Below are positions 5,356-47,312 of a DNA stretch of 64,000 nucleotides, piece after piece. Every line of letters begins with the position of its first letter. The stretch's first letter is position 1. The notes beneath the pieces are model-generated. The model ran no database searches and had not been told where the DNA came from. It worked only from the letters and a program-made list of their open reading frames with translations. This stretch comes from Escherichia coli (GTDB taxonomy: Bacteria; Pseudomonadota; Gammaproteobacteria; Enterobacterales; Enterobacteriaceae), in NCBI RefSeq assembly GCF_024298765.1, contig NZ_CP101210.1; one strand, given 5' to 3'. Position numbers and translations under genes: made by a program.

Positions 5356-6735
5356 ATGAAAAAATTAACCTGCTTTAAAGCCTATGATATTCGCGGGAAA
5401 TTAGGTGAAGAACTGAATGAAGATATCGCCTGGCGCATTGGTCGCGCCTATGGCGAATTTCTCAAACCGAAAACCATTGTGTTAGGCGGTGATGTCCGCC
5501 TCACCAGCGAAACCTTAAAACTGGCGCTGGCAAAAGGTTTGCAGGATGCGGGCGTCGATGTGCTGGATATTGGTATGTCCGGCACCGAAGAGATCTATTT
5601 CGCCACGTTCCATCTCGGCGTGGATGGCGGCATTGAAGTTACCGCCAGTCATAATCCGATGGATTACAACGGCATGAAACTGGTGCGCGAAGGGGCTCGC
5701 CCGATCAGCGGCGATACCGGACTGCGCGATGTCCAGCGTCTGGCAGAAGCCAACGACTTTCCTCCCGTTGATGAAACCAAACGCGGTCGCTATCAGCAAA
5801 TCAACCTGCGTGACGCTTACGTTGATCACCTGTTCGGTTATATCAGTGTCAAAAACCTTACGCCGCTCAAGCTGGTGATTAACTCCGGGAACGGCGCGGC
5901 GGGTCCGGTGGTGGACGCCATTGAAGCCCGCTTTAAAGCCCTCGGCGCACCGGTGGAATTAATCAAAGTACACAACACGCCGGACGGCAATTTCCCCAAC
6001 GGTATTCCTAACCCGTTGCTGCCGGAATGCCGCGACGACACCCGTCATGCGGTCATCAAACACGGCGCGGATATGGGCATTGCCTTTGATGGCGATTTTG
6101 ACCGCTGTTTCCTGTTTGACGAAAAAGGGCAGTTTATCGAGGGCTACTACATTGTCGGCTTGCTGGCACAAGCGTTCCTCGAAAAAAATCCCGGCGCGAA
6201 GATCATCCACGATCCACGTCTCTCCTGGAACACCGTTGATGTGGTGACTGCCGCAGGCGGCACCCCGGTAATGTCGAAAACCGGACACGCCTTTATTAAA
6301 GAACGGATGCGCAAGGAAGACGCCATCTACGGTGGCGAAATGAGCGCCCACCATTACTTCCGTGATTTTGCTTACTGCGACAGCGGCATGATCCCGTGGC
6401 TGCTGGTCGCCGAACTGGTGTGTCTGAAAGGAAAAACGCTGGGCGAACTGGTGCGCGACCGGATGGCAGCATTTCCGGCAAGCGGTGAGATCAACAGCAA
6501 ACTGGCGGACCCCGTTGAGGCGATTAACCGCGTGGAACAGCATTTTAGCCGTGAGGCGCTGGCGGTGGATCGCACCGATGGCATCAGTATGACCTTTGCC
6601 GACTGGCGCTTTAACCTGCGCTCCTCCAACACCGAACCGGTGGTGCGCCTGAATGTGGAATCGCGCGGTAATATAGCATTAATGAATGAACAGGTTGAAT
6701 TTATTACAAAATTTTTAAACGGTGATGGTTTATGA
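5356..6735 (+). CDS. manB: phosphomannomutase
   Basis: 459 aa; phosphohexomutase active-site region TASHNP; follows manC. Confidence 0.9.
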
Positions 6736-7289
6736 GAATATTAAAAATTATTATAAGTGTATTGTTGTTTATAAAAAAGAAAAGAAAAAAAATACCGGAC
6801 TCAGCAATAATAAACTTAACAAGTCATGTGGATAAACATTCAGTAATTGGAAAGTGTTGTTATATAGGGAAAAATGTATATATAACTAAAAGTATCATTG
6901 GGAATTACACATCTATTGCAAATAATGTCTCAATTGGTCAAGGTGAACATAAGGTTGATGCAGTTAGTACAAGTTCGATGTTCTACGATAATGAATTCGA
7001 AGATTTAACACAAAACGATTGTATTATAGGTAATGATGTGTGGCTCGGTACAGGAGTTACTGTATTACGAGGGGTAAGAATTGGTGATGGTGCTATTATT
7101 GGTGCTAATGCCGTTGTCACAAAAAATATTCCAGATTATTGTATTGCGGTAGGAGTACCTGCGAAAGTAATCAAAAGAAGATTACCAGTAAATGTTACTG
7201 AAAAAATAAAAGAGACTAAATGGTGGAATGATGAATATGAAGTGGCGAAGGATAAAATTATTTGCTTAACAAATGAATTAAAGTTATGA
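6732..7289 (+). CDS. hexapeptide-repeat acetyltransferase (putative O-acetyltransferase)
   Basis: 185 aa; left-handed beta-helix repeats [31 protein letters not shown]; start overlaps manB stop. Confidence 0.75.
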
Positions 7290-8728
7290 ACAAAAAAGAA
7301 ATAATTATCTTGCTTATAGCCAGAATTCTACAGATTCTCATTAGTTTATTCACAATGAGATTGATGACAACGATTTTAAGCAATGAGCAAATGGGGGAGT
7401 ATTATATTTTTTTAGCAATCTATATGTTGGCATCATTGGGTATAATTAATCCAATAGGACAATATGTGAATCGCAACACTTATTTATGGTGGAGAGAGGG
7501 AGTACTAACCCAATATATTGATCGATATATTAATTTTGTTTTGTGTTTTTCGCTTATTTATGTGATTTTGTATGGACTTGGTGAATGTTTGTTTAAAGGA
7601 ATAAATACACCATTTTGGATGTTATTCTGTTATTTATATATAGTATGTTTATCTCTAAACCAATTTCTATTACATACTTTAAATATCTTAAATTTTAAGA
7701 TAGTATTTTCCATTATGACGTTGATGACTTCTGTATTAAGTTTATCAGGGGCATATTTATTTATTGAATATAGCATAGCTAAACAAACTGTTAGTATATA
7801 TTACTGGGTTGCAGGAATCATAATTGGCAATTTTATTTCTTTATGTATATGCGTTGTATATCTGAGATGTAGAAATACGTTCCAAAAATCAATTCCTAAA
7901 TCTATCAATGTAAGCATAAAAGAAGTTTTTAATTTTTGCTGTCCAATTATGATAACAACTTTGTTCATTTGGTTTCAAAGCTCTGGATATCGATTTGCTG
8001 TCGAGCAAATGTTTGGCTTAAAGTTTTTAGGTATACTAGCTGTATGTTTTGCTGTGTCAGGGCAAATAATGTCAGTGATTGAGTCTTTAGTGACACAGAT
8101 ATTTCAACCAACATTATTTAAGCATATGGATAATGTCAAAAATAGAAAGCAACATCTAGATTTTTATATTAATGAAAATATAGCAATTTATGCTAGTGTA
8201 TTATTTTTTTGTACTTTCTTTATGCGCGAAATATTTTTGGTTTTAGTTGACAATAAATATCTTCCTTACTTCTATATAGGTATAATAGCTTTATGGAGTG
8301 AATTTTTTAGGATATCAACCAATACTTTGTCTTTAGTGTTTTTTTGCGAAAAGAAAATGAAGGTGGGAATTTTTCCTTATTTAATTGGCTCATTAAGTCT
8401 GGCTTTTTCGATCGTCTTGTTCAGGTTGTTAAATGTAAATTTGGGTATTTTAATAGCTTTTGCTATTGGGATTGCACAATTGGCCTCCTTTATCGTTTGC
8501 TTAATTACGGTAAAAAAAATCTCTTATTTTAAAATAAATTCCATCTTCTTAATGAAGAGGATAATAATAGTACTACCTTCTGTGTTAATTGCCCATTGCA
8601 TTCCTAAATTTGAAATGATTAATGCTGTCCATTTTATTATCATTTTCGGTGTCGGTTTATTTTACTTAATCTCTTTAGTTACTTCTTTTATGTTTATTAA
8701 ACAACCAGGAGGTGTTTATGGAAGTTAA
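7286..8728 (+). CDS. wzx: O-unit flippase
   Basis: 480 aa, highly hydrophobic multi-span protein, very AT-rich; position in O-antigen cluster. Confidence 0.8.
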   Translation: MNKKEIIILLIARILQILISLFTMRLMTTILSNEQMGEYYIFLAIYMLASLGIINPIGQYVNRNTYLWWREGVLTQYIDRYINFVLCFSLIYVILYGLGECLFKGINTPFWMLFCYLYIVCLSLNQFLLHTLNILNFKIVFSIMTLMTSVLSLSGAYLFIEYSIAKQTVSIYYWVAGIIIGNFISLCICVVYLRCRNTFQKSIPKSINVSIKEVFNFCCPIMITTLFIWFQSSGYRFAVEQMFGLKFLGILAVCFAVSGQIMSVIESLVTQIFQPTLFKHMDNVKNRKQHLDFYINENIAIYASVLFFCTFFMREIFLVLVDNKYLPYFYIGIIALWSEFFRISTNTLSLVFFCEKKMKVGIFPYLIGSLSLAFSIVLFRLLNVNLGILIAFAIGIAQLASFIVCLITVKKISYFKINSIFLMKRIIIVLPSVLIAHCIPKFEMINAVHFIIIFGVGLFYLISLVTSFMFIKQPGGVYGS

Positions 8729-9569
8729 AATTATTGGGGGACTTGGCAATCAGATGTTTCAGTATGCAACTGCATTTGCTATTGCAAAAAGAACTCATCA
8801 AAATTTGACTGTTGATATATCTGATGCAGTAAAATATAAAACTCATCCATTAAGATTAGTTGAATTATCTTGTAGTTCAGAATTTGTAAAAAAAGCATGG
8901 CCATTTGAAAAATACTTATTTTCCGAAAAAATCCCACATTTCATGAAAAAAGAAATGTTCAGAAAGCATTACGTTGAGAAAAGTTTAGAGTATGATCCAG
9001 ATATTGATACTAAAAGTATAAATAAAAAAATCGTCGGTTATTTTCAAACTGAAAAATATTTTAAGGAATTTAGGCATGAGTTGATAAAGGAATTTCAACC
9101 TAAAACTAAGTTTAATAGTTATCAAAATGAATTGCTTAATTTAATTAAAGAAAATGATACTTGTTCATTGCATATTAGAAGAGGTGATTATGTTTCCAGT
9201 AAAATAGCAAATGAAACTCATGGTACATGTAGTGAAAAATATTTTGAACGTGCCATTGATTATTTGATGAATAAAGGTGTTATTAATAACAAAACCCTTC
9301 TCTTCATTTTTTCTGATGATATAAAGTGGTGCAGGGAAAATATATTTTTTAATAATCAAATATGTTTTGTTCAAGGTGATGCTTATCATGTTGAATTAGA
9401 TATGTTGCTTATGAGTAAATGTAAAAATAATATAATTTCAAATAGTTCTTTCAGTTGGTGGGCTGCTTGGTTAAATGAAAATAAAAATAAAACAGTAATT
9501 GCTCCGAGTAAATGGTTTAAGAAAGATATTAAACATGATATTATTCCCGAATCGTGGGTAAAATTATGA
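8712..9569 (+). CDS. alpha-1,2-fucosyltransferase (GT11 family)
   Basis: 285 aa; N-terminal IIGGLGNQMFQYATAFAIAKR and HIRRGDY motif characteristic of GT11 fucosyltransferases. Confidence 0.8.
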   Translation: MFMEVKIIGGLGNQMFQYATAFAIAKRTHQNLTVDISDAVKYKTHPLRLVELSCSSEFVKKAWPFEKYLFSEKIPHFMKKEMFRKHYVEKSLEYDPDIDTKSINKKIVGYFQTEKYFKEFRHELIKEFQPKTKFNSYQNELLNLIKENDTCSLHIRRGDYVSSKIANETHGTCSEKYFERAIDYLMNKGVINNKTLLFIFSDDIKWCRENIFFNNQICFVQGDAYHVELDMLLMSKCKNNIISNSSFSWWAAWLNENKNKTVIAPSKWFKKDIKHDIIPESWVKL

Positions 9570-10432
9570 TGGAAGATACAAAAGAATTAATAACAGTAAT
9601 AATGCCTGTTTATAATGCGGAAAAATACATATATGAATCTATAAAAAGTATTTTGGTGCAGTCATATTCTAATTTTGAGTTCATCATTATTAATGATGGC
9701 TCAAAAGATTCTTCTGGAAAAATTATTGAAAACTTTCTCGATGATACGAGGATACGATATATAAATCGTGAAAATAAAGGTTTGGTCTTCACTCTGAATG
9801 AAGCTATTTCGTTATCAAGAGGAAATTATATTGCTCGAATGGATGCTGATGATATTTCACATCCCCTACGATTAGAAAAGCAACTAAATTTTCTACTAGA
9901 AAATCCAGATATAGCCGTAGTTGGGTGTTCTTCTTTTATTATTGACCAAAATTCTAAGGTTATAAATACGCGAAAACCACCTTTGACACCTTTAGTAAAT
10001 AAAGCATTGCTATTTTTTGGCCCAACATTAACTCATCCATCAGTGATGTTTAATAAAATACTACTTGGAGATCAGCTTTACTACAGTGATAAATATCTTC
10101 ATGTTGAAGATTATGACTTGTGGTTGAGGTTAATTAATCAATACAAAATAGCTAATATCAAAGATGTTCTTTTTTACTATCGAATTAATGAGTCAGGTGT
10201 TTCACAGACTAATTTATTTGAACAAAAAATTAATGCTGCTAAAGCATATAGTGAAATTAAATATGATGGTAAGTATAAAGACTTACTGGAAAAGTTAGAA
10301 GTCATACACCTGAGACATGAAATGGAGAAAAGTAAGGTCTTTCAGGCCGTATTATATATATTATTAAAGTATGAACATGATTCATTATTATTTTTAAAAT
10401 TAGGATATATATTACGATGGTTAATAAAATAA
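9554..10432 (+). CDS. glycosyltransferase family 2
   Basis: 292 aa; ITVIMPVYNAEKYI...IIINDGSKD and ARMDADD (DxD) motifs. Confidence 0.8.
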   Translation: MGKIMMEDTKELITVIMPVYNAEKYIYESIKSILVQSYSNFEFIIINDGSKDSSGKIIENFLDDTRIRYINRENKGLVFTLNEAISLSRGNYIARMDADDISHPLRLEKQLNFLLENPDIAVVGCSSFIIDQNSKVINTRKPPLTPLVNKALLFFGPTLTHPSVMFNKILLGDQLYYSDKYLHVEDYDLWLRLINQYKIANIKDVLFYYRINESGVSQTNLFEQKINAAKAYSEIKYDGKYKDLLEKLEVIHLRHEMEKSKVFQAVLYILLKYEHDSLLFLKLGYILRWLIK

Positions 10433-11316
10433 AAATAGCACTAATAAGTACAGAAAAAGCTAATCTTCCTGAAATTGAAGCCTATAAGGAGTATTTTTCG
10501 GAGCCATTTGATGTCTCTGTTGTTAATAAAAATGATGATTTAAGTTGTTATGATGTTTTATGGTACTTTATGGGGTTTAAAGGTAATAAAATAAACTCTA
10601 AACAGTTCTTGATTCATGAGTTTTCCTCAATTTCAGTACCACCATTTCCAAAAATAAAAAACGTTATCAAGAAATTTATTTTGCCTAAACCTAATTTGAG
10701 GGTTTTTTTAAATAAATCAGTGCAACAACAATTCGATTTTAATGATAGAGTTCCTTTTTGTTACCGAGATATGGGCGTCAATTATAAACCAGTAGTTGAA
10801 AGAAATAATAAAAAATATGATATATTATATGTGGGGGCAATTACTGGTAGAAAACTAGATGATGCATTAAATTTGATTTTGTCATATAAATTAGATTGTA
10901 AAATCGCAATTCTTGGTAAAGTGCCAGAAAAGTTCAAAGAAAAATATAAAAATACTGATGTTATATTTCTTGGGCAAGTTCCTTATAATCGGGTAGCCAC
11001 CATTATTGCAGAATCTAACTTGTGTTTAAATTGGATTCCGAATATTTATCCATATAACATGCAGACATCAACAAAATTCTTAGAGTATCTGGCACAAAAT
11101 AAACAAATAATATCGAATAGCTACCCTTGGGTTGACTCTTATTGTCAACAGCATAATATTGACTATATTAATGTCAATGATTCCAATTCTATTCGACAAG
11201 CATTGAACTCAGTCATAATCCAAAAATCAACACATATCCCCCCAAGTTGGCGAGAGGTTATTATGAATAGCGGGATAGAGAATCACATTAAATCATATTT
11301 TGAGGTAACAAAATGA
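10417..11316 (+). CDS. putative glycosyltransferase
   Basis: 299 aa, low-GC ORF between GT2 gene and wzy, overlapping stop/start junctions; no strong motif identified. Confidence 0.45.
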   Translation: MVNKIKIALISTEKANLPEIEAYKEYFSEPFDVSVVNKNDDLSCYDVLWYFMGFKGNKINSKQFLIHEFSSISVPPFPKIKNVIKKFILPKPNLRVFLNKSVQQQFDFNDRVPFCYRDMGVNYKPVVERNNKKYDILYVGAITGRKLDDALNLILSYKLDCKIAILGKVPEKFKEKYKNTDVIFLGQVPYNRVATIIAESNLCLNWIPNIYPYNMQTSTKFLEYLAQNKQIISNSYPWVDSYCQQHNIDYINVNDSNSIRQALNSVIIQKSTHIPPSWREVIMNSGIENHIKSYFEVTK

Positions 11317-12356
11317 TTTCTTACGGAGTGCTATTTCTCTTCTCTTATATCAATGCTGTACTTCAGAAGAGAGTAACCGTAACGTTACTATTTTTTATAA
11401 TGATAATTGTTTCTTTCTTTAAATATAATATTGGATTTGATTGGGGGAATTATCATGAAATTTACCTTCAGCAAGGAGATGGCTTTTTTTTTAATGAACC
11501 CCTATTTTCTCTCTTAATTATTCTTTCCAATAAGGTTGCATTAGAATATAAATATTTTATATCAATGTGCTCATTAATTACACTGATTGTTTATTATTCT
11601 GGTATGCGGTGTTTTGCAAGAGATATAAAAGAGTTAGCTTTAGCATTAACTTATTTTGTTGTCTCTTATTGCTACTTTGAACACTTTAATATTATTCGAC
11701 AAGCTTTAGCAATCGCTTTATTCTTTTATAGTTGGAAATATATTATTGAGACTAACTTTATAATGTATAGCCTCTTTATTTTTTTTGCATCTATGATTCA
11801 TGCGGCGGCGGTTGTATTGCTCCCATTTTACTTTTTCCTTAGAATTGATAATTTTAAACCTGTATATTATGGTATAGTGGTCTTATTTATTATTATTGTT
11901 GTTAGATTCGATATTAACAGCATCCTTTTAAGTTCACTTAATTTATTTAAAAATTTCGATTTTGTAGCCAGGTATTTAGCAAATTCAACAGATTTGGCTG
12001 ACTTTGCATCAAAAAAATCTGATCTTGGATTAAGTAAGATATACCCAGCAATTATATTTGTTTTCTGTTGTTTTTGGGGAGGGATTAGGTTAGAGTCTCG
12101 AAGAGACTATGTTTTTTTTAATGCTGGCTTTATTGCAATAACTTTACTGCTCTTAAGCTATCAGGTTGATATTTTGTTTAGATTTTTCTCTTTTTTTGAG
12201 ACTTCATTTGTCTTGTTGTACTGCATTATTTTTTCTGGTTTTAATAAAAAAAGTAAAATTATACTGCATATGGTTAATTTAATTGTATATACGGTAATGA
12301 CATTTAACATGTTATCAGTAATGGGCTTGATTCCTTATGAATCATACATTTTCTAA
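11313..12356 (+). CDS. wzy: O-antigen polymerase
   Basis: 347 aa, very hydrophobic multi-span protein with extreme AT bias; no recognisable soluble domain. Confidence 0.65.
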   Translation: MISYGVLFLFSYINAVLQKRVTVTLLFFIMIIVSFFKYNIGFDWGNYHEIYLQQGDGFFFNEPLFSLLIILSNKVALEYKYFISMCSLITLIVYYSGMRCFARDIKELALALTYFVVSYCYFEHFNIIRQALAIALFFYSWKYIIETNFIMYSLFIFFASMIHAAAVVLLPFYFFLRIDNFKPVYYGIVVLFIIIVVRFDINSILLSSLNLFKNFDFVARYLANSTDLADFASKKSDLGLSKIYPAIIFVFCCFWGGIRLESRRDYVFFNAGFIAITLLLLSYQVDILFRFFSFFETSFVLLYCIIFSGFNKKSKIILHMVNLIVYTVMTFNMLSVMGLIPYESYIF

Positions 12357-12730
12357 TAAGCTTCCCTCAGTTGTTTGTTGTATAGTAATATTTTAATATC
12401 ATTGCAGTGTGTAATTATTGTCAATAAGCTAATTTCTGTTATTTGCATGATTAATTCAGTTTGCAATGCTTGATGTAAAAAGATAAAGTGCACCCGTTTA
12501 CACAATGTTTATTTTGGCATGTCAAGTATAAGTTCTAAATAATACGTTTGTAATGTTTAGCATGTAAACATAATAGTTAAATAATATTAAACATGCAACA
12601 TGCCATTTGTTATTCTAATAAAACATATGTGTTGTGTGAATTATTTAATGTGGAAAGTGGTTGCGTATTATAAATTGTTCATATTGACGTTTAAGTCTTT
12701 TATAACTCCATGCTTGCATGTTAAAAACAT

Positions 12731-12752
12731 TTCGCTATATATTCGCTATATA
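12731..12752. repeat. perfect tandem direct repeat 2 x 11 bp (ttcgctatata) within AT-rich intergenic region
   Basis: ttcgctatatattcgctatata read directly; lies in the 480-bp gene-free region 12357-12837. Confidence 0.9.
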
Positions 12753-12837
12753 TTATGGTAGGTGGTTTTTATCTAGGCAGATTTGTCTATTTAACTCTAA
12801 ATCTAAATCGCTTAAGAAAGTATGAGTAGGAGTATTT

Positions 12838-13857
12838 ATGGCTATTCTCGTTACAGGTGGTGCTGGTTATATTGCATCACATACTATACTGAGTTTGATA
12901 GAGCAGGGTAATGAAGTAATTATTATTGATAATTTATCAAATTCATATTATGATTCGTTATTGAAAATAAAAGAGATTACTGGATGTGATTGTCTTTTTT
13001 ATAAAGGAGATATCCTTGACAAAAAACTCTTGCTAAAAATATTTGATGAAAATAATATCACTGCTGTGATGCATTTTGCTGGTGCAAAGTCTGTAAGTGA
13101 ATCTGTTATCAGACCTTTGCAATACTATCGAAATAATGTCTCTGGCACTTTTTCTTTAGTTGAGGCAATGGAGGAGTCTGGTGTAGAAAATTTAATATTT
13201 AGCTCTTCAGCAACTGTCTATGGTGAGCCAAAGATTATTCCTGTGAATGAAAGTTGTGCTATAGGTGGTACTACAAATCCGTATGGAACGTCCAAGTTAT
13301 TTGTAGAGAACTTTTTGCGGGATTATTCTAAGGCATCCCCTAATTTTAAAACTATAGTATTAAGATATTTTAACCCTATCGGTGCTCACTCATCTGGAAA
13401 AATAGGTGAAGATCCTAACGGAATTCCGAATAACTTGATGCCCTTTATATGCCAGGTTGCTATCGGTAAACAAAAAACGCTCAAGATCTACGGAAATGAT
13501 TATCCTACTAAAGATGGTACTGGGATTCGCGATTATATTCATGTTATGGATCTTGCTGAAGGTCATGTTGCTGCATTAAATAATATTAATCAAGGAGCTA
13601 ATTATAGAGTTTACAACCTTGGAACAGGAATTGGATACTCTGTGTTGGAATTATTAGAAGCATTTCAGAAAGTTACAACTCGGAGAGTTCCCTATGTTTT
13701 TACTAAAAGGCGTTCAGGTGATATCGCTGAATGTTGGTCTGATCCTACCAAAGCGTATGAAGAATTAGGATGGAAAGCAAGGCGAGGGTTAGAAGATATG
13801 ATTCGTGATGCATGGAATTGGCAGCAAAAAAATCCAAATGGATTTAAGAAAGTTTAA
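12838..13857 (+). CDS. gne: UDP-GlcNAc/UDP-Glc 4-epimerase
   Basis: 339 aa; N-terminal ILVTGGAGYIASHT NAD-binding motif; C-terminus parallels the partial epimerase at window start. Confidence 0.9.
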   Translation: MAILVTGGAGYIASHTILSLIEQGNEVIIIDNLSNSYYDSLLKIKEITGCDCLFYKGDILDKKLLLKIFDENNITAVMHFAGAKSVSESVIRPLQYYRNNVSGTFSLVEAMEESGVENLIFSSSATVYGEPKIIPVNESCAIGGTTNPYGTSKLFVENFLRDYSKASPNFKTIVLRYFNPIGAHSSGKIGEDPNGIPNNLMPFICQVAIGKQKTLKIYGNDYPTKDGTGIRDYIHVMDLAEGHVAALNNINQGANYRVYNLGTGIGYSVLELLEAFQKVTTRRVPYVFTKRRSGDIAECWSDPTKAYEELGWKARRGLEDMIRDAWNWQQKNPNGFKKV

Positions 13858-13963
13858 TAAAAATGAAACGATATATTAAGTGTTAGCTTGTTTAATTAAT
13901 TTAAAGTTAATATTATTTACATTAATATGTAATGAAAGTGATATTCTATGACAGGAGTAAACA

Positions 13964-15370
13964 ATGTCAAAGCAACAGATCGGCGTAGTCGGTATGGCAG
14001 TGATGGGGCGCAACCTTGCGCTCAACATCGAAAGCCGTGGTTATACCGTCTCTATTTTCAACCGTTCCCGTGAAAAGACGGAAGAAGTGATTGCCGAAAA
14101 TCCAGGCAAGAAACTGGTTCCTTACTATACGGTGAAAGAGTTTGTTGAATCTCTGGAAACGCCTCGTCGCATCCTGTTAATGGTGAAAGCAGGTGCAGGC
14201 ACGGATGCTGCTATTGATTCCCTCAAGCCATACCTCGATAAAGGTGACATCATTATTGATGGTGGTAATACCTTCTTCCAGGATACCATTCGTCGTAACC
14301 GTGAGCTTTCTGCCGAAGGTTTTAACTTCATTGGTACCGGTGTCTCCGGTGGTGAAGAAGGCGCGCTGAAAGGTCCTTCCATCATGCCTGGTGGGCAGAA
14401 AGAAGCCTATGAACTGGTTGCACCGATCCTGACCAAAATCGCCGCCGTTGCTGAAGATGGCGAACCGTGCGTTACCTATATTGCTGCCGATGGCGCGGGT
14501 CACTATGTGAAGATGGTTCACAACGGTATTGAATACGGTGATATGCAACTGATTGCTGAAGCCTATTCTCTCCTGAAAGGCGGCCTGAATCTTTCTAACG
14601 AAGAACTGGCACAGACCTTTACCGAGTGGAATAACGGTGAACTGAGCAGCTACCTGATCGACATCACCAAAGACATCTTCACTAAAAAAGATGAAGACGG
14701 TAACTACCTGGTTGATGTGATCCTGGATGAAGCGGCTAACAAAGGTACCGGTAAATGGACCAGCCAGAGCGCGCTGGATCTCGGAGAACCGCTGTCGCTG
14801 ATTACCGAGTCTGTGTTTGCACGTTATATCTCTTCTCTGAAAGATCAGCGTGTTGCAGCGTCTAAAGTTCTCTCTGGTCCGCAAGCGCAGCCTGCTGGCG
14901 ACAAGGCTGAGTTCATCGAAAAAGTTCGTCGTGCTCTGTATCTGGGCAAAATCGTTTCTTACGCCCAAGGCTTCTCTCAGCTGCGTGCTGCGTCTGAAGA
15001 GTACAACTGGGATCTGAACTACGGCGAAATCGCGAAGATTTTCCGTGCTGGCTGCATCATCCGTGCGCAGTTCCTGCAGAAAATCACCGATGCTTATGCC
15101 GAAAATCCGCAGATCGCTAACCTGCTGCTGGCTCCGTACTTCAAGCAAATTGCCGATGACTACCAGCAGGCGCTGCGTGATGTCGTTGCTTATGCAGTAC
15201 AGAACGGTATCCCGGTTCCGACCTTCGCGGCTGCGGTTGCCTATTATGACAGCTACCGCGCCGCAGTTCTGCCTGCAAACCTGATCCAGGCACAGCGTGA
15301 CTATTTCGGTGCGCATACTTATAAGCGCATTGATAAAGAAGGTGTGTTCCATACTGAATGGCTGGATTAA
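13964..15370 (+). CDS. gnd: 6-phosphogluconate dehydrogenase, decarboxylating
   Basis: 468 aa; N-terminal [17 protein letters not shown]; high GC core-gene composition. Confidence 0.97.
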
Positions 15371-39530: not shown

Positions 39531-40352
39531 TCAGCGCAGGCTCTCCAGCATCGTTTCTGCCATCACCCACAATGCGCGGTTGAGCTTAATGTCGGTATCA
39601 ATGCTGTGAATGGCCCGGGTATGGATACGTTTTCCTCTGGCACTGCGCCCGGAAATCCCGCCTTTCAGCATATTCTCCTGGATGGTCTGATAAGCACTCC
39701 ACAGGTCCTTACCGTAATCCTCCCGGCGTCGTGGTGTCAGAATGTCGGCGGTGGTGACGGGCTGATGTTCGTCACCATAACGGTAAGTCAGCGCCGCCTG
39801 TGCCAGCGCCTGGCGTGCCGGTGGCGGCAGGACCAGCGACTGCATGGCATCACGCTTCTCCTCTATCCGGTCAAACACGCCCACCACCTCGTAAGCCCCT
39901 TCAATGACTCTGTCCACCACATTTCCCCGGTGCGGAACACGTACTTCCCCCAGAGACTGACCACAGACGCAGCCGTTCTGGCAGACGAACCTGAAGTACC
40001 CCGGCAGCATCTGGTAGCTGGAGGTACCGTCATGAGAGTTGAGCAGAATAATTTCAGGGACATGTTCTCCGTTTATCTCTCCGGCCCGCCGCAGACGCAG
40101 CATGTGTTTTGTGTATCCCCGGCGGCCCGGGTCGCGCACACGGGTCTGGCAGGCGAAGAACGGCTGAAAGCCTTCCCGCTGCAGATTTTCCAGGACGGTA
40201 ATGGTGGGAATGTACGCATACCGTTCACTGCGGGAGGTGTGCCGGTCTTCCCCAAAAATACTGGGTACATGGCGTATCAGTTCTTCATGTGTCAGCGGAC
40301 GGTCACGGCGTATCTGGTTTGCAGCATAACCAAAACGACTTGCTAATCGCAT
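39531..40352 (-). CDS. DUF932-family protein (YfjQ/YafZ-like)
   Basis: 273 aa; conserved member of the CP4-type island backbone. Confidence 0.65.
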   Translation of the reverse strand: MRLASRFGYAANQIRRDRPLTHEELIRHVPSIFGEDRHTSRSERYAYIPTITVLENLQREGFQPFFACQTRVRDPGRRGYTKHMLRLRRAGEINGEHVPEIILLNSHDGTSSYQMLPGYFRFVCQNGCVCGQSLGEVRVPHRGNVVDRVIEGAYEVVGVFDRIEEKRDAMQSLVLPPPARQALAQAALTYRYGDEHQPVTTADILTPRRREDYGKDLWSAYQTIQENMLKGGISGRSARGKRIHTRAIHSIDTDIKLNRALWVMAETMLESLR

Positions 40353-40572: not shown

Positions 40573-40983
40573 TTAGATTTTAAGTTTGTCCTGGGCTACA
40601 ACGACAGGTTTTCCGGATGTGTCGATGACTCCTACCGTCGGTACGCCATTTTTGATTTCGAAGAACGGTTTGTTGCTACCTGAGCACAGTTGATTGTCCC
40701 CGTATTCAATCATTTGTGCTTTCCCGGTTTTCAGGTTAACTACCGAGACAGTGTAGTCGTAGCACCAGGCACCACCACGTTCAAGCACGAAAACATAGCT
40801 GTTATCTTTATAGTTGAACTGATTCTTTGTCTGGCAATTCATACCGTCAATTTCGGTACAGGAAAACGCTTCTGTAGTATTAACGTATTTGATGTTATTT
40901 GGCAGTTTTACTTGTTTCGCAGTAGCGAAGACAGAGAACAGAATAGTTACAGCAACGAGTAAAGTTTTGATAAAAGTTTTCAT
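40573..40983 (-). CDS. small secreted protein, unknown function
   Basis: 136 aa; N-terminal signal peptide MKTFIKTLLVAVTILFSVFATA; 4 Cys in mature part; hairpin plus T-run terminator at about 40401-40440. Confidence 0.6.
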   Translation of the reverse strand: MKTFIKTLLVAVTILFSVFATAKQVKLPNNIKYVNTTEAFSCTEIDGMNCQTKNQFNYKDNSYVFVLERGGAWCYDYTVSVVNLKTGKAQMIEYGDNQLCSGSNKPFFEIKNGVPTVGVIDTSGKPVVVAQDKLKI

Positions 40984-40998
40984 GATAGACTCCTTAAA

Positions 40999-41487
40999 TT
41001 AGTTAACCGCAGCTACGTAGTTTTTCACCAGATACGCGAATTCATGCACGCCAATTTCACCGAACCAAACCAGGTAGGCCGGGTCATCTAAACCAAAGTA
41101 ACGGTAGCCAACAACTTCATGGGTTTTTGGGTTATAGAGTGTTACGATAAAGTCCCAGCCGCAGGTATTGGCTTTGCAACCGTCGCCCTGGAACCAGACT
41201 GTACCGTTAATGTTTACTGGCGTGATACCTCCACCAGGGCCATCCATATAGCCGCCTTTACCGAACATGCCGCTCAGTCCGACCGGTTTTAATGCTTTGT
41301 CGATAGCGGCTTTGTAGGTAGCGTCACCTTCGTACAACTCGTACGTTGATGGACACGCTCCAGGTTGTTCAGCCCAGGCTTCCGGGTTACAACTAAGAGC
41401 TTGTTTTACGGTAGCCGCTTCTGCGTTAAAGTTAAAGCCCGTGAACAGAACCGCCAGAAATAACATAAGGGTATGTAAACGTTTCAT
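40999..41487 (-). CDS. secreted protein, unknown function
   Basis: about 163 aa from internal Met of ORF 40999-41790; signal peptide MKRLHTLMLFLAVLFTGFNFNAEA; Cys-containing motifs GACPST and DGCKANTCGWD. Confidence 0.55.
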   Translation of the reverse strand: MKRLHTLMLFLAVLFTGFNFNAEAATVKQALSCNPEAWAEQPGACPSTYELYEGDATYKAAIDKALKPVGLSGMFGKGGYMDGPGGGITPVNINGTVWFQGDGCKANTCGWDFIVTLYNPKTHEVVGYRYFGLDDPAYLVWFGEIGVHEFAYLVKNYVAAVN

Positions 41488-41817
41488 TGTAAATATTCTT
41501 CCGTTGTAAATGGCGCTGGAAAATTTCTCATCAGTGAAACCTTCCGGAAGTTTCCCCCCCTTGTATGATGTATATCGCCAGTATTTTATTTCATCCCGGC
41601 TGTAATTTTTATATTCCCCGGCACGTGCAATAACGCTGACCAGAGATATAAGGCTCATTAATAACTTTACAGGTAATTTCATAATTAAATTTCCAGTGAG
41701 TGAATTGACAGGTGAGGGGTAAAACTTTCTCTCAGGTAATATATATATGAAAATATTTTCAATAACACCAGACAGGAAAAACACCACCACAGGCGGTGGC
41801 GTTTCTTTGGGGCGTCT

Positions 41818-42888
41818 TTATTTAATCCGGGCCATCGCGTTTCTCAGTGCCAAATCTGCCTCTTCCGTTATATCCAGGCTTTTCTGCAATACCGCCTCTG
41901 ACCGGGTCAGTGCCTGACGTGCTGCCAGCGGTTTCCGGATATGCTCCATCGCCAGCATCGTGTCTTCATAGCCCTGCTGACGCCAGGCGTCGGTATGTGC
42001 CGATGTAAAACTGAGCAGACCGCCGCTGTTGCCACCATCACCTGCATATTTCAGCCTTTTCCGGGGACGGATCTCAAGGATTGTGGTGTCCGGAAAAGCC
42101 TGGCGATCCCATAAAGAACCCTCACTCAGATGCGTCACAATCACCATATTGCATCCGGCATCGACCAGAGGCGTCACAGGGGTATTTCCCTGCATATTTC
42201 GCCATCCTCCCATACCACCATCACCGAACATTGTCCCCTGAACCTCACGGGGACGGAACAGCAGGGGCAGCGCGGCTGACGCAAGCAGAGCCTCTTTCTG
42301 CTGTCCGCGGGGCAGGCTCTGGATATGCTGAAAAACGGCGTTTTTCGTGGTTCCGACACCCAGTTCAGCACGAATGCAGTCAATAATATCCTGCATGCCC
42401 CCTTCTGTGGGGTACAGCGACACATACAGCGGTAGCCCGTCTGCCAGAGCATCAGTATCAAGATAATGATCCATCAGCGCTGTCAGGGGCTCATCTGACA
42501 ACAACGGCTGAGCCATCAGATTGTCAAACCCGTTGATTGTCGATATATGGCGAAGAAGCGTCGTAAGCAGTGCTCCTGCACGTCCGGGGATCTGGCAGAG
42601 GTTCATTGCCTGGAACAATTTTTTCAGCAATGAAAAGTAAACCAATCTGTTTACCGACAGCACCTGATTATTCCCCAGATGATCCCAGAGCGCCTCCAGG
42701 CGTACGGCAGCTTCTGACAGATCGGGAGAGGCCGCGATAATGGCACCATTGAATGCGCCAATGCTGGCCCCTGAAACCATGCTGATCTGTGTACCACACT
42801 CTGCCAGTGCCTTAACCACTCCCGCCTGATAAGCGCCCACCGCCCCGCCACCGGACAGCACCAGCCCCGTTTTCATTTCTGTACTCAT
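41818..42888 (-). CDS. patatin-like phospholipase
   Basis: 356 aa; oxyanion-hole SGGGAVGAYQAG, nucleophile elbow GASIG, catalytic Asp motif FGDGGM; start codon overlaps upstream gene stop. Confidence 0.85.
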   Translation of the reverse strand: MSTEMKTGLVLSGGGAVGAYQAGVVKALAECGTQISMVSGASIGAFNGAIIAASPDLSEAAVRLEALWDHLGNNQVLSVNRLVYFSLLKKLFQAMNLCQIPGRAGALLTTLLRHISTINGFDNLMAQPLLSDEPLTALMDHYLDTDALADGLPLYVSLYPTEGGMQDIIDCIRAELGVGTTKNAVFQHIQSLPRGQQKEALLASAALPLLFRPREVQGTMFGDGGMGGWRNMQGNTPVTPLVDAGCNMVIVTHLSEGSLWDRQAFPDTTILEIRPRKRLKYAGDGGNSGGLLSFTSAHTDAWRQQGYEDTMLAMEHIRKPLAARQALTRSEAVLQKSLDITEEADLALRNAMARIK

Positions 42889-43790
42889 GCAGCCCCCTTC
42901 TGAAATATTTCATCGACCATACTTTCAGAGAGGCGTTCTGCAGAGCAGAGGCGAGGCATGCGAACCGGTAAGTGTTCTGCAGCCTGCGTGGTTGACCAGA
43001 TCACCGGATGCTGCTCTTCACTGCACCAGTCTCCCAGCCAGTTAATCGCGTCATGCCACTCGTTATCTGCCTGCTCCCGGCCCTGACCACCAAGCCAGTC
43101 CAGAGTGTTCAGACGCACGGTTGCACTACCGCCACTCTCCTGTGCCATCTGCGTTAATGCTTTATGTCTGAGAATATCCAGTAGCTGGTTAACCTGGCCT
43201 GTTTCGCTCTGACGTATCACATCACCAAACGCGCCCCAGCGAAGCTCTTCAAGTGCCACATAACAACGTCCGGCAGGGGAAAATGACGCATATCGCCCGG
43301 CGCTCCACCATGAGAATATCTGCTCAAGATGTAACTGCGCCCGCTGAACCTGGTCAACACGGTGGAGTTTTTCTTCAAGATGATTCAGTTTATGGTGAAC
43401 CTGATCGGCCAGGGTGAGTAACTGCTCCCGCGTATCTGCGGAATAATGCGCCAGCCTGGCTGTATCACTGACCAGTGAACTGACCCTGTCGTTTACCCGG
43501 GTAATCGCGTAGTTTGTGGTGGCAAGTGACGTTGTCAGCTCCGTCAGCCAGCGCAGGGATGCCTCAACGCCCTGTGCAAGCGAAGCATTGATGGCATTCT
43601 GCCGTGCAGCACCTTCGCCGCTCAGCCCCTCTTTTAACCGCCGGAAGAACGTGCGCTCTCCGGCCGTGCGGATATGCTCCTGTGCAACATCGATACCGTT
43701 TGCGAAATCAACCACAAATTTTTCAGGAAGACAGGTGAGTACCTGACATACCCGGTTATCAGCAATTTGTTGAATAAATGGTGAAGTCAC
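42885..43790 (-). CDS. coiled-coil protein, possible YjcZ-like partner of dynamin-like GTPase
   Basis: 301 aa, helical/coiled-coil character, no enzymatic motif seen; overlapping stop/start junctions with both flanking genes. Confidence 0.5.
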   Translation of the reverse strand: MTSPFIQQIADNRVCQVLTCLPEKFVVDFANGIDVAQEHIRTAGERTFFRRLKEGLSGEGAARQNAINASLAQGVEASLRWLTELTTSLATTNYAITRVNDRVSSLVSDTARLAHYSADTREQLLTLADQVHHKLNHLEEKLHRVDQVQRAQLHLEQIFSWWSAGRYASFSPAGRCYVALEELRWGAFGDVIRQSETGQVNQLLDILRHKALTQMAQESGGSATVRLNTLDWLGGQGREQADNEWHDAINWLGDWCSEEQHPVIWSTTQAAEHLPVRMPRLCSAERLSESMVDEIFQKGAA

Positions 43791-46183
43791 AGCATTGTCT
43801 CCAGTTCTTCCCTTAACGCCTTACTGTCAGTAATGAGCTCAGGAACTCTTTCATTTAACGCCTGAAGACGCCCGGTCAGCCGTTCCTGCGCCTGCTGATC
43901 GCGTTTATGATCTTCAGAGCTCTGAATCAGCGTGTTACGCAGCTGTTCAACTTTCTCCCTGAATGTACAGAAAAAGGCATCGATTTCCTGGCGGACGGGC
44001 TGGTTAATATCCTGCTCAATGGATGCCTGCAGCTCCCCGAAATATGCCCGGGTCAGTGACATCACCTCCTTCCTGACCTTGTTGATATTGATAACACTGC
44101 GGCTCACATCCACGTTATAGTTTTCCCATCCCCATTCTTTGGTGCCAATCCATCCACAAATCTTTCCAATGAAGCTATCCTTCCGACGGCGACGGGTGAC
44201 TGTCTCCGTTCTTTCCTCCATAAGCGCACTCAGATTTGTTTTTACCGCGAGCCGGGTCTGTAACTGACTGACTGCCGGAAAACTGATTTTTACAGTGAAG
44301 CCCTCATCCGCCAGGCGGGCATTGATACGTCCGGCGATGTTTTCTGTCGCATACAGGGCCGTACCACGAAAACCTGTTTCAATCCCGCTGACGATTTTCT
44401 CCAGCTCAGGCCGGAACTGTGCCTCAGCCTCACTGTGCAGGCTGGTCACGGTCGATTCGATTTGCGTCATCAGTTCAAGGGCTTCCCTGCGATTATTTAA
44501 TGTTATCTCGGGGTTTTCCGGATCAAAGACTCGTATCCTGTCATCCTCCCAGCCCGGGTTATTGATACCGGACCATCGATAAATCTTTCCCCATAATCCG
44601 GACCGGGACCTTCGTTGTTCTGTGTCTTCTTCCTCCAGCATTTGCTGTTCTTTGCGTTTACCGGTTCTGAAATAGTCATTCAGTTCCTCTTCCAGTGAGG
44701 TGCAGACCCCCGTGAGTAATTCCCGGGTTCTGGCATCGATCTCCTCCATGGCCATTCTGACATCAGCGGTCACCTGCTCCTGACAGTCCGCGATTTCCCG
44801 GATATCCGCAAGCAGGCTGGTGATATGCGCCTGCAGTGACTGAATGCTTTGCTGTAGCCCCTGATGGCGTAATGACAGATATTCGCTGACATTTTCCGCA
44901 TTCTGCATCAGTTTTGCGGCGGCAGAATCAACCGCCAGTGCCGCCGCTCTGGAATGGGAACTCTGTATGACTTCCGTTATCAGTTGATCGATAAGTGAGC
45001 CTTCCCACAGGTCTGTTGCCCCTTCAGTTGCCAGTTCGCTGTCTTTACAGACGTAATCTTTTTTCATGCGACCGAAAGCTTCCCTGACAAAATCATCGAC
45101 CCAGGCTTCATCAACAGGAAGGGTTCCGTTTTTCCGTAACTCATGAAGCGCACGGTTAGCCAGGTATGCCTGGCGTGAGGATCCGGGATAAACGCGGGAG
45201 GCGGGCAGCACATCGCTGTTCAGCATTGCCGGAACTTTCTGGCGTACGGCATCTGCCCCATCGCCATTGCGGTCTTTCTCATCAAATTTATTGACCAGCA
45301 CAAACAGGCGGCCAACTGATACGTCCGCAATGGCATTAAGCTCTTTACGGACGTCTTCATCCGCTTTTGAGTTCATCTGGGTGTAATCCATCACTGCCAG
45401 AACCGCAGAAGCTTTCTGCAGTTGATCCCGCATCATCACTTCCATCTGCGGCTGGCCGGCTTCATTAGGGCCGGGGGTATCCAGCAGTGTGAGTGTTCCC
45501 TGGCATGCATCCATCCCCACCAGATGGCTGAATTCCACGTCGATCACCGGCAGTTTCTGCACTTCTGCGTATTCATCAAAAGGAAACTCACTCCCCATTG
45601 CCGCAGCAAGACGAACCAGATCGTTTAACGATGCCAGTCCGGTAAAGATTTCCTCCTCCCCGTGGTATTCATTTTTGAGCCAGCCATCATCCGTCAGAAT
45701 ATCCAGCAGTTCACGGGTATCCCCGGTTTGCAGCAGGGTCTGTGCGACTTGCTGTCCTGCCGGGGTGGCGAGTTTTTCCTGCAGTGTGATTAATAAATTG
45801 CGGACAGGCTGAATATGTTCCAGATGGAGGACCGGCTCAGTTTTTCCGGGAACGTGGCGGATGAGTGTCGGTACAGAGGTCATGGGGCGGTTACGGTTAG
45901 GCAGAATTTCCTGCCCCACAATGGCGTTGATGGTGGTTGATTTGCCTGCTTTCATCGTGCCGACAACAGCCAGCACCATCTCCCTGCGGGCGGTTTTGAT
46001 TTGTTCGCCCTCCAGCTCCTCAATTCTTTTCAGCGCTTTCCGTTTATCAAAAAGCAGCCCGTTTTCGTTCTTACTGTCAGATAACACATCCGGCTCATCA
46101 ACCATTTGCCGGAGCAGATTGATATTCAGTTGCAAAAGCCGGTCGGCTTCATCACAAAGCAGGGCGATGTTCTTTTCGTGCAT
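43787..46183 (-). CDS. bacterial dynamin-like GTPase (CrfC/YjdA/LeoA-like)
   Basis: 798 aa; G1 GTMKAGKST, G3 DTPG, G4 NKFD in N-terminal third; long helical stalk C-terminally; RBS aggaagg upstream. Confidence 0.8.
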   Translation of the reverse strand: MHEKNIALLCDEADRLLQLNINLLRQMVDEPDVLSDSKNENGLLFDKRKALKRIEELEGEQIKTARREMVLAVVGTMKAGKSTTINAIVGQEILPNRNRPMTSVPTLIRHVPGKTEPVLHLEHIQPVRNLLITLQEKLATPAGQQVAQTLLQTGDTRELLDILTDDGWLKNEYHGEEEIFTGLASLNDLVRLAAAMGSEFPFDEYAEVQKLPVIDVEFSHLVGMDACQGTLTLLDTPGPNEAGQPQMEVMMRDQLQKASAVLAVMDYTQMNSKADEDVRKELNAIADVSVGRLFVLVNKFDEKDRNGDGADAVRQKVPAMLNSDVLPASRVYPGSSRQAYLANRALHELRKNGTLPVDEAWVDDFVREAFGRMKKDYVCKDSELATEGATDLWEGSLIDQLITEVIQSSHSRAAALAVDSAAAKLMQNAENVSEYLSLRHQGLQQSIQSLQAHITSLLADIREIADCQEQVTADVRMAMEEIDARTRELLTGVCTSLEEELNDYFRTGKRKEQQMLEEEDTEQRRSRSGLWGKIYRWSGINNPGWEDDRIRVFDPENPEITLNNRREALELMTQIESTVTSLHSEAEAQFRPELEKIVSGIETGFRGTALYATENIAGRINARLADEGFTVKISFPAVSQLQTRLAVKTNLSALMEERTETVTRRRRKDSFIGKICGWIGTKEWGWENYNVDVSRSVININKVRKEVMSLTRAYFGELQASIEQDINQPVRQEIDAFFCTFREKVEQLRNTLIQSSEDHKRDQQAQERLTGRLQALNERVPELITDSKALREELETML

Positions 46184-46244
46184 TATTTAACCTTCCTAAG
46201 ACGCATTTTCATGACAACCACGGAGGAGGTCATTTACTACAAAT

Positions 46245-46279
46245 GATCGTTTATAACGATCGATATGATAGTAACGATC
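46245..46279. promoter_or_regulatory. cluster of three GATC (Dam) sites in 5' region of the dynamin-like operon
   Basis: GATC at 46245, 46258 and 46276; aacgatcgat occurs twice 18 bp apart; 62-96 bp upstream of the GTPase start codon. Confidence 0.5.
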
Positions 46280-46400
46280 GATGTATTCTATTAACTTGAG
46301 AAACACAACGCAAGGGGACAACCCGGGTATGGCTGCGTTTGCATAGTGTTTTCATGGAGTTAAAAATCTGTAACAACAGCCTGGTACATCACCACCGGGT

Positions 46401-47312
46401 TCAGAAGAAAATCCAGTTCCATACCACGCGGGCAACAGAGACCACCGAGTCACGGACGGCGCGCAGAACCGTGCGTGCAACAGAGGCAATGCAGACGCTC
46501 TCCGCCGTGTCAAATATCCGGTCCACCGCACCGGTAAACTGTTCACGGGCCTGAGACCGGACAGACTCCGTGCGCAGCTCGTCCTGCAGGCGGGTCATCA
46601 GGGGACTGGCGGCATGGTCGGGAAGTGCTGTCATGAGCGCACTGACCAGCGTATCCAGTTCCCAGCCGGTGCGGGCCGATACGGCAACAACCCGATGTAC
46701 GGGCCGGAACAGACGGAATACCGCCTCCGTTTTTTCGCGAATGTTCTGTGCCTGTGCGGGAGAAGGCTGAATACCGGCCATATCCCATTCATGGCAGGGC
46801 TCCGTTTTATCGGCCTGCATCACCACAAACAGTACCCGCTGATGTCCCCGGTGCAGGATGTGTCGCCAGAAATACTCATCCACAGACAGGGCACGGTCAT
46901 CGGCTTTAATCAGCCACAGTACCAGGTCCAGTTCGAGCAGAATGTCACGGTACAGGGCTTCATACTCTGCATCCCTGTCCCGGCTCTCGCCCACCCCGGG
47001 CAGGTCAGTGATAACCATGCTGTGACCATGGCCATTCAGACGGAAGCGCTGCACTTCCCGGGGGCCGGCGTGAACATCACTGACCGGGGTGACCTCCCCC
47101 TGAAACAGCGCATTACAGAGTGAGGATTTACCGGCCCCGCTTTTACCCATAATGCCAGGCACGGGTTCGTGACTGGTGAGTTTGCGCAGATGTTCCAGGA
47201 TGTGACGGGAAAGTGAGTAAGGCAGGGAGGAGAGCGGTTTTTCAATTGCCTCAATGGCATCAGACGGATTCATACATGTATTCCCGGTGAAAAAAGACAA
47301 AACCCCGCGCAC
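46401..47312 (-). CDS. YeeP/YfjP/YkfA-family GTPase, apparently intact
   Basis: P-loop GIMGKSGAGKSSL, DLPG, VMQADK motifs; possible start at internal MNPSDAIE (47273). Confidence 0.8.
   Translation of the reverse strand: MRGVLSFFTGNTCMNPSDAIEAIEKPLSSLPYSLSRHILEHLRKLTSHEPVPGIMGKSGAGKSSLCNALFQGEVTPVSDVHAGPREVQRFRLNGHGHSMVITDLPGVGESRDRDAEYEALYRDILLELDLVLWLIKADDRALSVDEYFWRHILHRGHQRVLFVVMQADKTEPCHEWDMAGIQPSPAQAQNIREKTEAVFRLFRPVHRVVAVSARTGWELDTLVSALMTALPDHAASPLMTRLQDELRTESVRSQAREQFTGAVDRIFDTAESVCIASVARTVLRAVRDSVVSVARVVWNWIFF

Follow-up and report, generated by a model that had tools for sequence, protein, structure and literature searches.

In Escherichia coli K-12, the soluble dynamin-like protein RdcA and its partner RdcB dock on the MASE1 domain of DgcE and activate it (PMC6510439). 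In that system GTP is an inhibitor: the RdcA variant K82A, which does not bind GTP, is active, and T103D, which binds GTP and does not hydrolyze it, is inactive (PMC6510439). The same protein had earlier been described as CrfC (YjdA), a binder of the β-clamp that acts through the motif 41-QLALP, in which Q41 is essential (PMC6374313). It is difficult to see how the two functions published for the RdcA/CrfC-YjcZ pair, binding to the clamp and activation of DgcE, fit together. Here we describe a related pair that is joined to a lipase gene in a 64,000-nucleotide stretch of E. coli DNA (contig NZ_CP101210.1 of assembly GCF_024298765.1; hereafter, the window). Three genes on its minus strand encode a dynamin-like GTPase (43787-46183; 798 aa, ATG start), for which we use the abbreviation DLP (dynamin-like protein), a protein of the YjcZ/RdcB family (42885-43790; 301 aa, GTG start) and a patatin-like phospholipase (41818-42888; 356 aa, ATG start). 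We refer to them as the trio.

The idea that this operon serves in defence is not new. A transcriptome study from 2026 called such operons putative dynamin phage defence systems, without a functional test (PMC12922286), the operon type is also listed in passing in another genome paper, and an earlier note on the window had proposed a GTPase-controlled phospholipase with an abortive-infection or defence role. Our literature searches found no functional study of the trio and no report of phage protection by it. What is new here is the detailed paralogy with RdcAB, the conservation statistics across phyla, the mostly trio-linked nature of the YjcZ family, a partner-specific tail on the patatin, recurrent WYL regulators and an upstream switch of the agn43 type.

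The trio proteins and their relation to RdcAB

All three genes are intact, and RefSeq gives the same three coding sequences in the 100%-identical record NZ_AP027813.1, where they are named ‘dynamin family protein’, ‘diguanylate cyclase regulator RdcB family protein’ and ‘patatin-like phospholipase family protein’. Successive genes overlap by 4 nt, exactly where the earlier note had placed the overlaps. At the DLP/YjcZ junction, CTGTGACT, the GTG start lies over the TGA stop (GTGA); at the YjcZ/patatin junction, GCATGAGT, an ATG start lies over the TGA stop (ATGA); and a Shine-Dalgarno-like purine run is found 5′ of the start at both. Directly after the patatin stop codon, a scan detected a terminator-like hairpin with a T run (41782-41798, minus strand, read from 41798 to 41782), which is a consensus match only and consists of seven pairs, five of them G-C, a loop of 3 and the tail TTTTTCCTGT. 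The transcription unit thus looks like the three genes.

The DLP matches Pfam Dynamin_N (5e-17) and carries the four elements that define a G domain of the dynamin superfamily, namely G1 (GxxxxGKS/T; GTMKAGKST, residues 75-83), the G2 threonine of switch I (T102), G3 (DxxG; DTPG, 235-238) and G4 (N/TKxD; NKFD, 298-301). The earlier note had called this signature complete, as it had the catalytic set of the patatin, and both sets of motifs proved invariant in alignments of orthologues sharing 22-64% identity; for the DLP, this holds for G1-G4 and T102 across 52 aligned orthologues. The AlphaFold model (pLDDT 81) predicts a G domain, helices of 60-80 residues and a β-hairpin tip, which is the combination of a G domain with an elongated helical stalk expected of a dynamin superfamily member. 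The best Foldseek matches of the model are BDLP (2j69, E 1.5e-13), IniA, SynDLP, mitofusins, Cj-DLP1/2, dynamin and LeoA; by sequence, only the G domain of BDLP is detectable against solved structures. A Trp-rich tip motif (RR..G.WG....F...DWG.E.Y) is conserved in the DLP. The protein contains no hydrophobic paddle segment, the highest 19-residue Kyte-Doolittle mean being 1.16, and no transmembrane segment was found in any of the three trio proteins. Two loci depart from the usual DLP gene: in Acinetobacter chengduensis (L039, 4930-6525) an extra 531-aa dynamin-like open reading frame (ORF) lies directly upstream of the full-length gene, and one Synergistaceae trio (L060, 1290-6356) encodes a 1,688-aa DLP of double length that is reminiscent of fused DynA-type proteins.

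The second gene had been described in the earlier note as a coiled-coil partner. The gene is there as described, but its family and the kinship of the GTPase to RdcA/CrfC had been missed: the product matches Pfam YjcZ (PF13990; 4.5e-70) over the full length of the model (positions 1-272 of 272) and is 30% identical to K-12 RdcB/YjcZ from end to end. In its predicted structure the N-terminal half is helical and of low confidence, and the C-terminal part (residues 145-296) forms a compact domain with a pLDDT of about 90, for which a structure search with the model found no specific structural relative.

The DLP aligns over its full length with the NCBIfam model for CrfC (NF007368) at 558 bits, against an equivalog cut-off of 1146. 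It is 46% identical to K-12 RdcA over residues 33-454, which span the G domain and the beginning of the stalk, and collinear at about 15% identity in the C-terminal half. Its T102 is the equivalent of RdcA T103. The position of the clamp-binding motif 41-QLALP is taken by ENGLL in the window DLP, and the motif is absent from all 50 trio DLPs aligned, for which reason we rejected a CrfC-like clamp-binding function. Furthermore, the trio does not occupy the core locus yjdM-rdcA-rdcB-proP but lies in an island of the CP4-44 type. Considering (i) the score below the equivalog cut-off, (ii) the missing clamp motif and (iii) the different locus, the first two genes are, as judged from their sequences, full-length paralogues of RdcA/CrfC and RdcB/YjcZ, not their equivalents. 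The earlier note had named a match to a characterized system of non-defence function among the results that would tell against its reading, and RdcAB comes close to being one; the trio nevertheless does not match it, given identities of 30-46%, half the CrfC cut-off score, no clamp motif and an added patatin gene.

The YjcZ family as a whole is small, with only 654 clusters in a profile search of 1.84 billion representative proteins, and nearly all of the top 150 representatives are nearer to the trio-type YjcZ than to K-12 RdcB. In the three divergent representatives that were sampled, the YjcZ gene always has a patatin gene after it, and the RdcB-like representative sampled belongs to a two-gene pair beside yjdM, as in K-12. 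The family is thus mostly trio-linked, and the lipase-less rdcAB form is the minority. Its small size and predominant linkage to patatins suggest that the core job of YjcZ proteins may be the GTP-gated activation of a partner enzyme.

The product of the third gene matches Pfam Patatin (7e-24) and contains the features that define the family, which are the oxyanion loop GGGxxG (SGGGAVG, residues 12-18), the nucleophile elbow GxSxG (GASIG, 40-44) and the catalytic Asp in DGG (223-225). G13-G15, S42 and D223 are invariant in a 14-sequence alignment. The motifs align with those of the solved structures of PlpD, VipD and ExoU, and these catalytic motifs are the only part of the protein in which the relationship is detectable by sequence. 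A C-terminal helical tail of about 35 residues (about 320-356) is found in every trio-linked patatin, including that of the one Synergistaceae trio; patatin-only proteins end near residue 320 and do not have it. As its presence goes with that of the partners, the tail may serve for docking. Most of the patatin-only group belongs to a single Synergistaceae clade, in which the gene stands behind formate-dehydrogenase and mobA genes in a housekeeping context; these upstream genes were considered as alternative partners and rejected as unrelated. Fusions of YjcZ with patatin or of Dynamin with patatin were likewise set aside as frameshift or deletion artefacts, as nearly all are single-member clusters with at least 94% identity to E. 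coli genes. Three E. coli patatin clusters (P0017, P0026 and P0041) hold truncated copies of 210-262 aa with hundreds of member sequences; such copies are labelled ‘ferredoxin reductase’ in public records, which looks like a propagated misannotation.

Conservation, genomic setting and a predicted upstream switch

A scan of one genome per species returned 436 stretches of the patatin subfamily, and the best 80 loci were examined. The complete trio, on one strand and in the same order, is present in 63 of these 80 species-level loci; six others are cut by contig ends, one lacks the GTPase gene and about ten are patatin-only. Such recurrence of one gene order in different species means that the arrangement is not due to chance, and it bears out the co-occurrence in other genomes that the earlier note had proposed as a check. 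The DLP and YjcZ genes overlap in 38 of the 63 complete loci and lie within 20 nt of each other in 52. The trio occurs in Gammaproteobacteria and Betaproteobacteria, heterocystous Cyanobacteria, Synergistaceae, Desulfobacterota, Victivallales and Marinimicrobia; full-length relatives of the patatin are found in many genera, and the order Dynamin_N-YjcZ-Patatin was seen in Pectobacterium, Vibrio vulnificus and Pseudomonas fluorescens, among others. The pairwise divergences of the three proteins are correlated (rho 0.82-0.85), which could equally stem from shared vertical descent, and the dN/dS ratios against the Escherichia albertii copy are 0.23, 0.07 and 0.34 for the three genes in turn. The trio is therefore a conserved, selected and co-inherited three-gene unit.

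Of 5,426 complete E. coli genomes, 2,444 (about 45%) have a match to at least 80% of the 4.65-kb query, with up to five matching places per genome. A variant of about 63% identity is carried by plasmids of Enterobacter, Klebsiella and E. coli. A phage origin of the trio was rejected, there being no match among 50,697 phage genomes and one partial close relative among 2.9 million viral contigs. On an IncR plasmid of K. pneumoniae (L088, 6278-10991), IS1 truncates the 5′ end of the DLP gene, of which the remnant is annotated ‘dGTPase’, and the YjcZ and patatin genes are still annotated as intact; this suggests that the lipase is tolerated without an intact GTPase. In Tolypothrix brevis (L041, 1-21002), the trio (6408-11035) sits inside the nif region, with NifV-like and CysE-like genes upstream and NifB, NifS, NifU, globin and NifH genes downstream. 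The nif clusters of heterocystous cyanobacteria are known to host excisable elements.

In the window, the trio is cargo of a CP4-44-type island; the earlier note had placed it in the cargo slot of a CP4-type island. The island, with its order taken from NZ_AP027813.1, reads yeeW, cbtA (frameshifted), cbeA, yeeT, yeeS, an antirestriction gene, the DUF932 gene, two hypothetical genes, the trio and the YeeP-like GTPase gene. The two flanks named in the earlier note, the YeeP-like gene (46401-47312) and the DUF932 gene (39531-40352), are correct; what it had omitted are the two hypothetical genes on the minus strand (40573-40983 and 40999-41682) that separate the patatin gene from DUF932. Its remark on the decay of neighbouring genes also stands, several genes besides cbtA being pseudogenes in the 100%-identical record. 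The two hypothetical genes were considered as extra components of the operon, as five co-induced genes are mentioned in the transcriptome study (PMC12922286), and rejected: they have no NCBIfam match and recur in no other trio locus, so that the conserved unit is the trio. Both (40573-40983 and, in its longer form, 40999-41790) encode signal-peptide-like N-termini and have a lowered GC content of about 0.47; the longer ORF contains two consecutive segments of this kind, beginning MKLPVKLLMSLISLVSVIARA and MKRLHTLMLFLAVLFTGFNFNAEA. Elsewhere in the window, positions 7000-14000 are very low in GC (0.28-0.30) and lie upstream of the his operon, a position that fits an O-antigen gene cluster.

The region upstream of the trio contains a feature that the earlier note had missed. 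The sequence 5′ of the operon can be aligned to the intergenic region between yeeP and flu of K-12, with 44 of 59 positions identical in the core (46242-46300, minus strand) and 28 of 83 and 26 of 58 in its flanks (34-45%). The core comprises a putative promoter and a homologue of the Dam/OxyR switch of agn43 (flu), in which OxyR binding represses transcription and Dam methylation of GATC sites blocks OxyR, giving rise to heritable ON and OFF lineages (PMC2909390, PMC3764049). A −10 hexamer, TAGAAT (46290-46285), and three GATC sites in the operator just downstream of the promoter (46279-46276, 46261-46258 and 46248-46245) stand at the aligned positions of the agn43 switch, in the same island slot downstream of yeeP. 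The differences are a GATC spacing of 18/13 nt at the trio versus 19/13 nt in K-12, the replacement of the 5′ untranslated region (UTR; the isrC region) and what is driven, the Ag43 autotransporter gene in K-12 and the trio here. E. albertii (L008) retains all three GATC sites despite substitutions next to them; they were not found upstream of the trio in other taxa.

The trio thus appears to have taken the place of the flu coding region in the island slot while the switch was kept, from which we predict that its expression in Escherichia is phase-variable. With such a switch, a module that may be suicidal would be expressed epigenetically, as a form of bet-hedging. Furthermore, a clonal ON state in the lysogen lineage would be a simple alternative reading of the ‘induction’ reported in a lysogen in PMC12922286. 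The 5′ UTR of the operon also contains a 16-codon ORF, MTSSVVVMKMRLRKVK (46183-46233, minus strand), whose TAA stop overlaps the DLP ATG by one base (TAATG). It has no clear Shine-Dalgarno sequence 5′ of it and is present in the E. albertii copy, with a synonymous change, CTT to CTC, as the sole difference seen; it could encode a coupling leader peptide or be there by chance.

In other taxa, defence genes are often found near the trio, in keeping with the defence-island setting that the earlier note had proposed to look for. The neighbours include BrxL and PglZ in Vibrio, BrxF and BrxC in Pantoea, BrxR, SIR2 and an AAA protein in Pseudomonas and, in further Pseudomonas loci, JukA, WYL and NERD-UvrD. 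An Alcanivoracaceae trio has a Type IIG restriction-modification system upstream and ZorA downstream, and REase, PD-T4-1 and DolB-like genes adjoin the trio of Ottowia. Weaker or candidate defence neighbours were noted in HdN1, Paraburkholderia and Psychrobacter loci. In total, strong defence neighbours accompany the trio in about 6 of about 15 loci and candidates in 3 more, in a small sample that we chose ourselves and that has no background control. On the islands of MP1, EcoKI and Druantia have been reported (PMC12922286).

A WYL-type regulator is encoded in 24 loci, directly upstream of the GTPase gene in 11 of them. Between this regulator and the DLP gene, some betaproteobacterial loci encode a family of small signal-peptide proteins (L013, 4139-4591; L030, 2565-2975; L018, 2811-3833) that share the motif GVL..G...SAL..VSE.SGD. 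Two Pseudomonas loci (L007 and the flank of L014) have an ADP-ribosylglycohydrolase-family gene near the trio together with a BrxR/WYL regulator; in L007 (5012-6064) it lies immediately upstream of the trio, and it could belong to a local variant as an accessory component.

Models of trio function

Combining these findings, we propose that the trio is a single module in which a latent cytoplasmic patatin phospholipase is controlled by the DLP and its YjcZ partner. We consider it likely that the three proteins form one functional team whose output is the lipase. By analogy with the gating of DgcE by RdcAB, the GTP-bound DLP would be the OFF state and the nucleotide-free or post-hydrolysis DLP would be the ON state. 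The DLP-YjcZ complex would read the state of the cell, responding during infection to a fall in the GTP pool or to assembly-stimulated GTP hydrolysis, and would then license the lipase, probably via the partner-specific C-terminal tail of the latter. The licensed lipase would degrade inner-membrane phospholipids, resulting in abortive infection. In Escherichia, the expression of the module would be heritably ON or OFF owing to the agn43-type Dam/OxyR switch; in other taxa, a WYL-type regulator is often encoded upstream.

From the genomic islands, plasmids and defence islands on which the module travels, we infer that its role is most likely abortive-infection-type anti-phage defence or, more broadly, a part in mobile-element conflict. 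The combined statement, a GTPase-gated latent phospholipase that most likely serves abortive infection, is one that we hold with moderate confidence. Several observations weigh against it. The nearest characterized relatives, RdcAB and CrfC, have non-immune functions. In the window's own island, the annotation of the 100%-identical record includes no recognizable defence system, and a search of the three proteins with PADLOC v2 gave only sub-threshold matches (LeoBC, ZorA and the CBASS lipase). About 5-6 of the about 15 loci have no defence neighbour, among them those of Tolypothrix (nif), Pseudanabaenaceae, Cardiobacterium, Comamonadaceae and Pectobacterium, and the limits of that sample given above, like the shared descent that may account for the co-divergence of the proteins, tell in the same direction.

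Of the alternatives, the one that survives best, and which we nonetheless consider unlikely, is a membrane-stress or repair module. Like DynA and IniA, the DLP would assemble where the membrane is damaged, and the damaged lipids would be removed or remodelled by the patatin, to the benefit of a host under envelope stress. The DLP model does match the membrane-remodelling proteins BDLP, IniA, SynDLP and mitofusins, its Trp-rich tip is conserved, roles of bacterial DLPs in membrane surveillance are summarized in PMC12922286, and some trio loci have no defence neighbours. However, RdcA has been reported as soluble, with a protein and not lipid as its target, and the DLP lacks a hydrophobic paddle. 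A repair function also sits poorly with a sporadic distribution on mobile elements in multiple copies per genome and with the frequent adjacency of defence genes, and it does not obviously need phase-variable or WYL control.

We find it rather improbable that the trio is an addiction or inter-element conflict module, in which a patatin toxin restrained by DLP-YjcZ stabilizes islands and plasmids or excludes competitors and phages are not the primary target. The translational coupling of the genes resembles the organization of toxin-antitoxin pairs, and the trio keeps company with toxin genes, namely the pair cbtA/cbeA on CP4-type islands and, on IncR and other plasmids, ccdAB and a gene for a RES toxin. 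But a 798-aa GTPase with a partner is far more elaborate than typical antitoxins, and a context of BREX, Zorya and restriction-modification fits immunity islands. The truncated copies cut both ways: that they occur, as in a DLP gene disrupted by IS1 with the lipase gene left in place, speaks for this reading, yet the annotated full-length lipase of that copy argues that the enzyme is not lethal without an intact GTPase.

The full-length homology of the first two proteins to RdcA and RdcB, together with the RefSeq name of the middle gene, would agree with an island-borne variant of RdcAB signalling that acts on c-di-GMP via DgcE or another MASE1 protein, or in CrfC-like chromosome partition, with the patatin as a secondary output. 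This, too, is improbable. The failure to reach more than half the CrfC cut-off, the loss of 41-QLALP from every DLP aligned and the low identity of the C-terminal half all speak against it. So does the distribution: YjcZ proteins are encoded mostly in trios and less often in the two-gene rdcAB form, and the trio extends to phyla far from Enterobacteria, always with a lipase that is, by its motifs, catalytically intact.

Lastly, a virulence lipase that, like ExoU or VipD, is secreted or directed at a host, with the GTPase pair as its chaperone or regulator, is highly improbable, since the resemblance of the catalytic motifs to those of VipD, ExoU and PlpD and the presence of the trio on pathogenicity islands such as PAI-CFT073-aspV (PMC12922286) are outweighed by the lack of a signal peptide, a transmembrane segment or a secretion-system linkage and by the occurrence of the trio in free-living Gallionella, Allochromatium, Scytonema and methanotrophs.

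Returning to the GTPase-gated lipase, a wider version of this proposal is possible, if speculative. DLP-YjcZ would be a general sensor of GTP state that licenses effectors, with the patatin as its ancestral and predominant output and RdcAB-DgcE as a derived, lipase-less offshoot. A GTP pool that collapses or is perturbed through phage, or the assembly of the DLP on an injured membrane, would free the lipase and kill the infected cell, and in Escherichia the co-opted agn43 switch would make the system bistable, so that only a subpopulation is armed. On this version, about 45% of E. coli genomes and hundreds of species would encode an abortive-infection system that had gone unrecognized.

If the trio does serve in defence, it would be among the most prevalent E. 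coli systems, yet absent from PADLOC v2. It would also represent a new way of controlling a membrane-destroying effector, by a DLP GTPase and YjcZ instead of a cyclic-nucleotide signal.

Comparison with known systems

Of the profile searches proposed in the earlier note, the one with Pfam found Dynamin_N, YjcZ and Patatin in the three proteins and the one with PADLOC v2 matched no system. Two known systems were considered on the strength of individual components and rejected. Eleos (LeoA and LeoBC; formerly ‘Dynamins’) likewise places dynamin-superfamily GTPases in defence islands, and the structure search with the DLP model retrieved LeoA. Nevertheless, the trio gave no match to LeoA and a match to LeoBC of E 2.7e-5 with no stretch passing, and Eleos consists of two dynamin-like genes with neither a YjcZ nor a patatin component.

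The second is CBASS, whose effector CapV is of the same kind as the proposed output of the trio, a latent patatin phospholipase that kills by membrane degradation once its sensor module activates it. The presumed activator of the trio lipase, however, is the GTPase pair, not a cyclic nucleotide; the CBASS enzyme is named cGAMP-activated phospholipase in NCBIfam. The CBASS_lipase model (NF041079) scored 18.3 bits against a cut-off of 200, the PADLOC effector models gave E 1e-4 with no passing stretch, and no CD-NTase is annotated in the trio flanks in the 100%-identical record.

Latency until the binding of a cofactor is typical of patatin lipases, and ones that stay inactive until a protein cofactor binds are also known among secreted effectors. 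VipD of Legionella is activated by Rab5-GTP and ExoU by ubiquitin, so that the cofactor of VipD is itself a GTPase, and the catalytic motifs of both align with those of the trio lipase. They differ in that they act in eukaryotic cells with host cofactors and are unrelated to the trio patatin outside the catalytic core. With BDLP, DynA, IniA and SynDLP, the trio DLP shares the predicted fold, in which the G domain leads into a long helical stalk that bears a tip; it differs from them in its sequence (12-13% identity), in having no evident paddle and in being paired with YjcZ, not with a second DLP.

The closest comparison remains RdcA/RdcB. The two-protein architecture, the gene order with overlapping genes, and the P-loop and switch-I threonine that define the GTP gate are all kept in the trio. 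The trio adds a third, translationally coupled gene for a patatin, whereas the known target of RdcAB, DgcE, is encoded elsewhere in the genome, and it is borne by islands and plasmids, whereas RdcAB resides in the core yjdM-rdcAB-proP locus. The parts of the trio therefore belong to known families, and together they may constitute a module of defence islands in which a controller of a new type governs a latent patatin effector.

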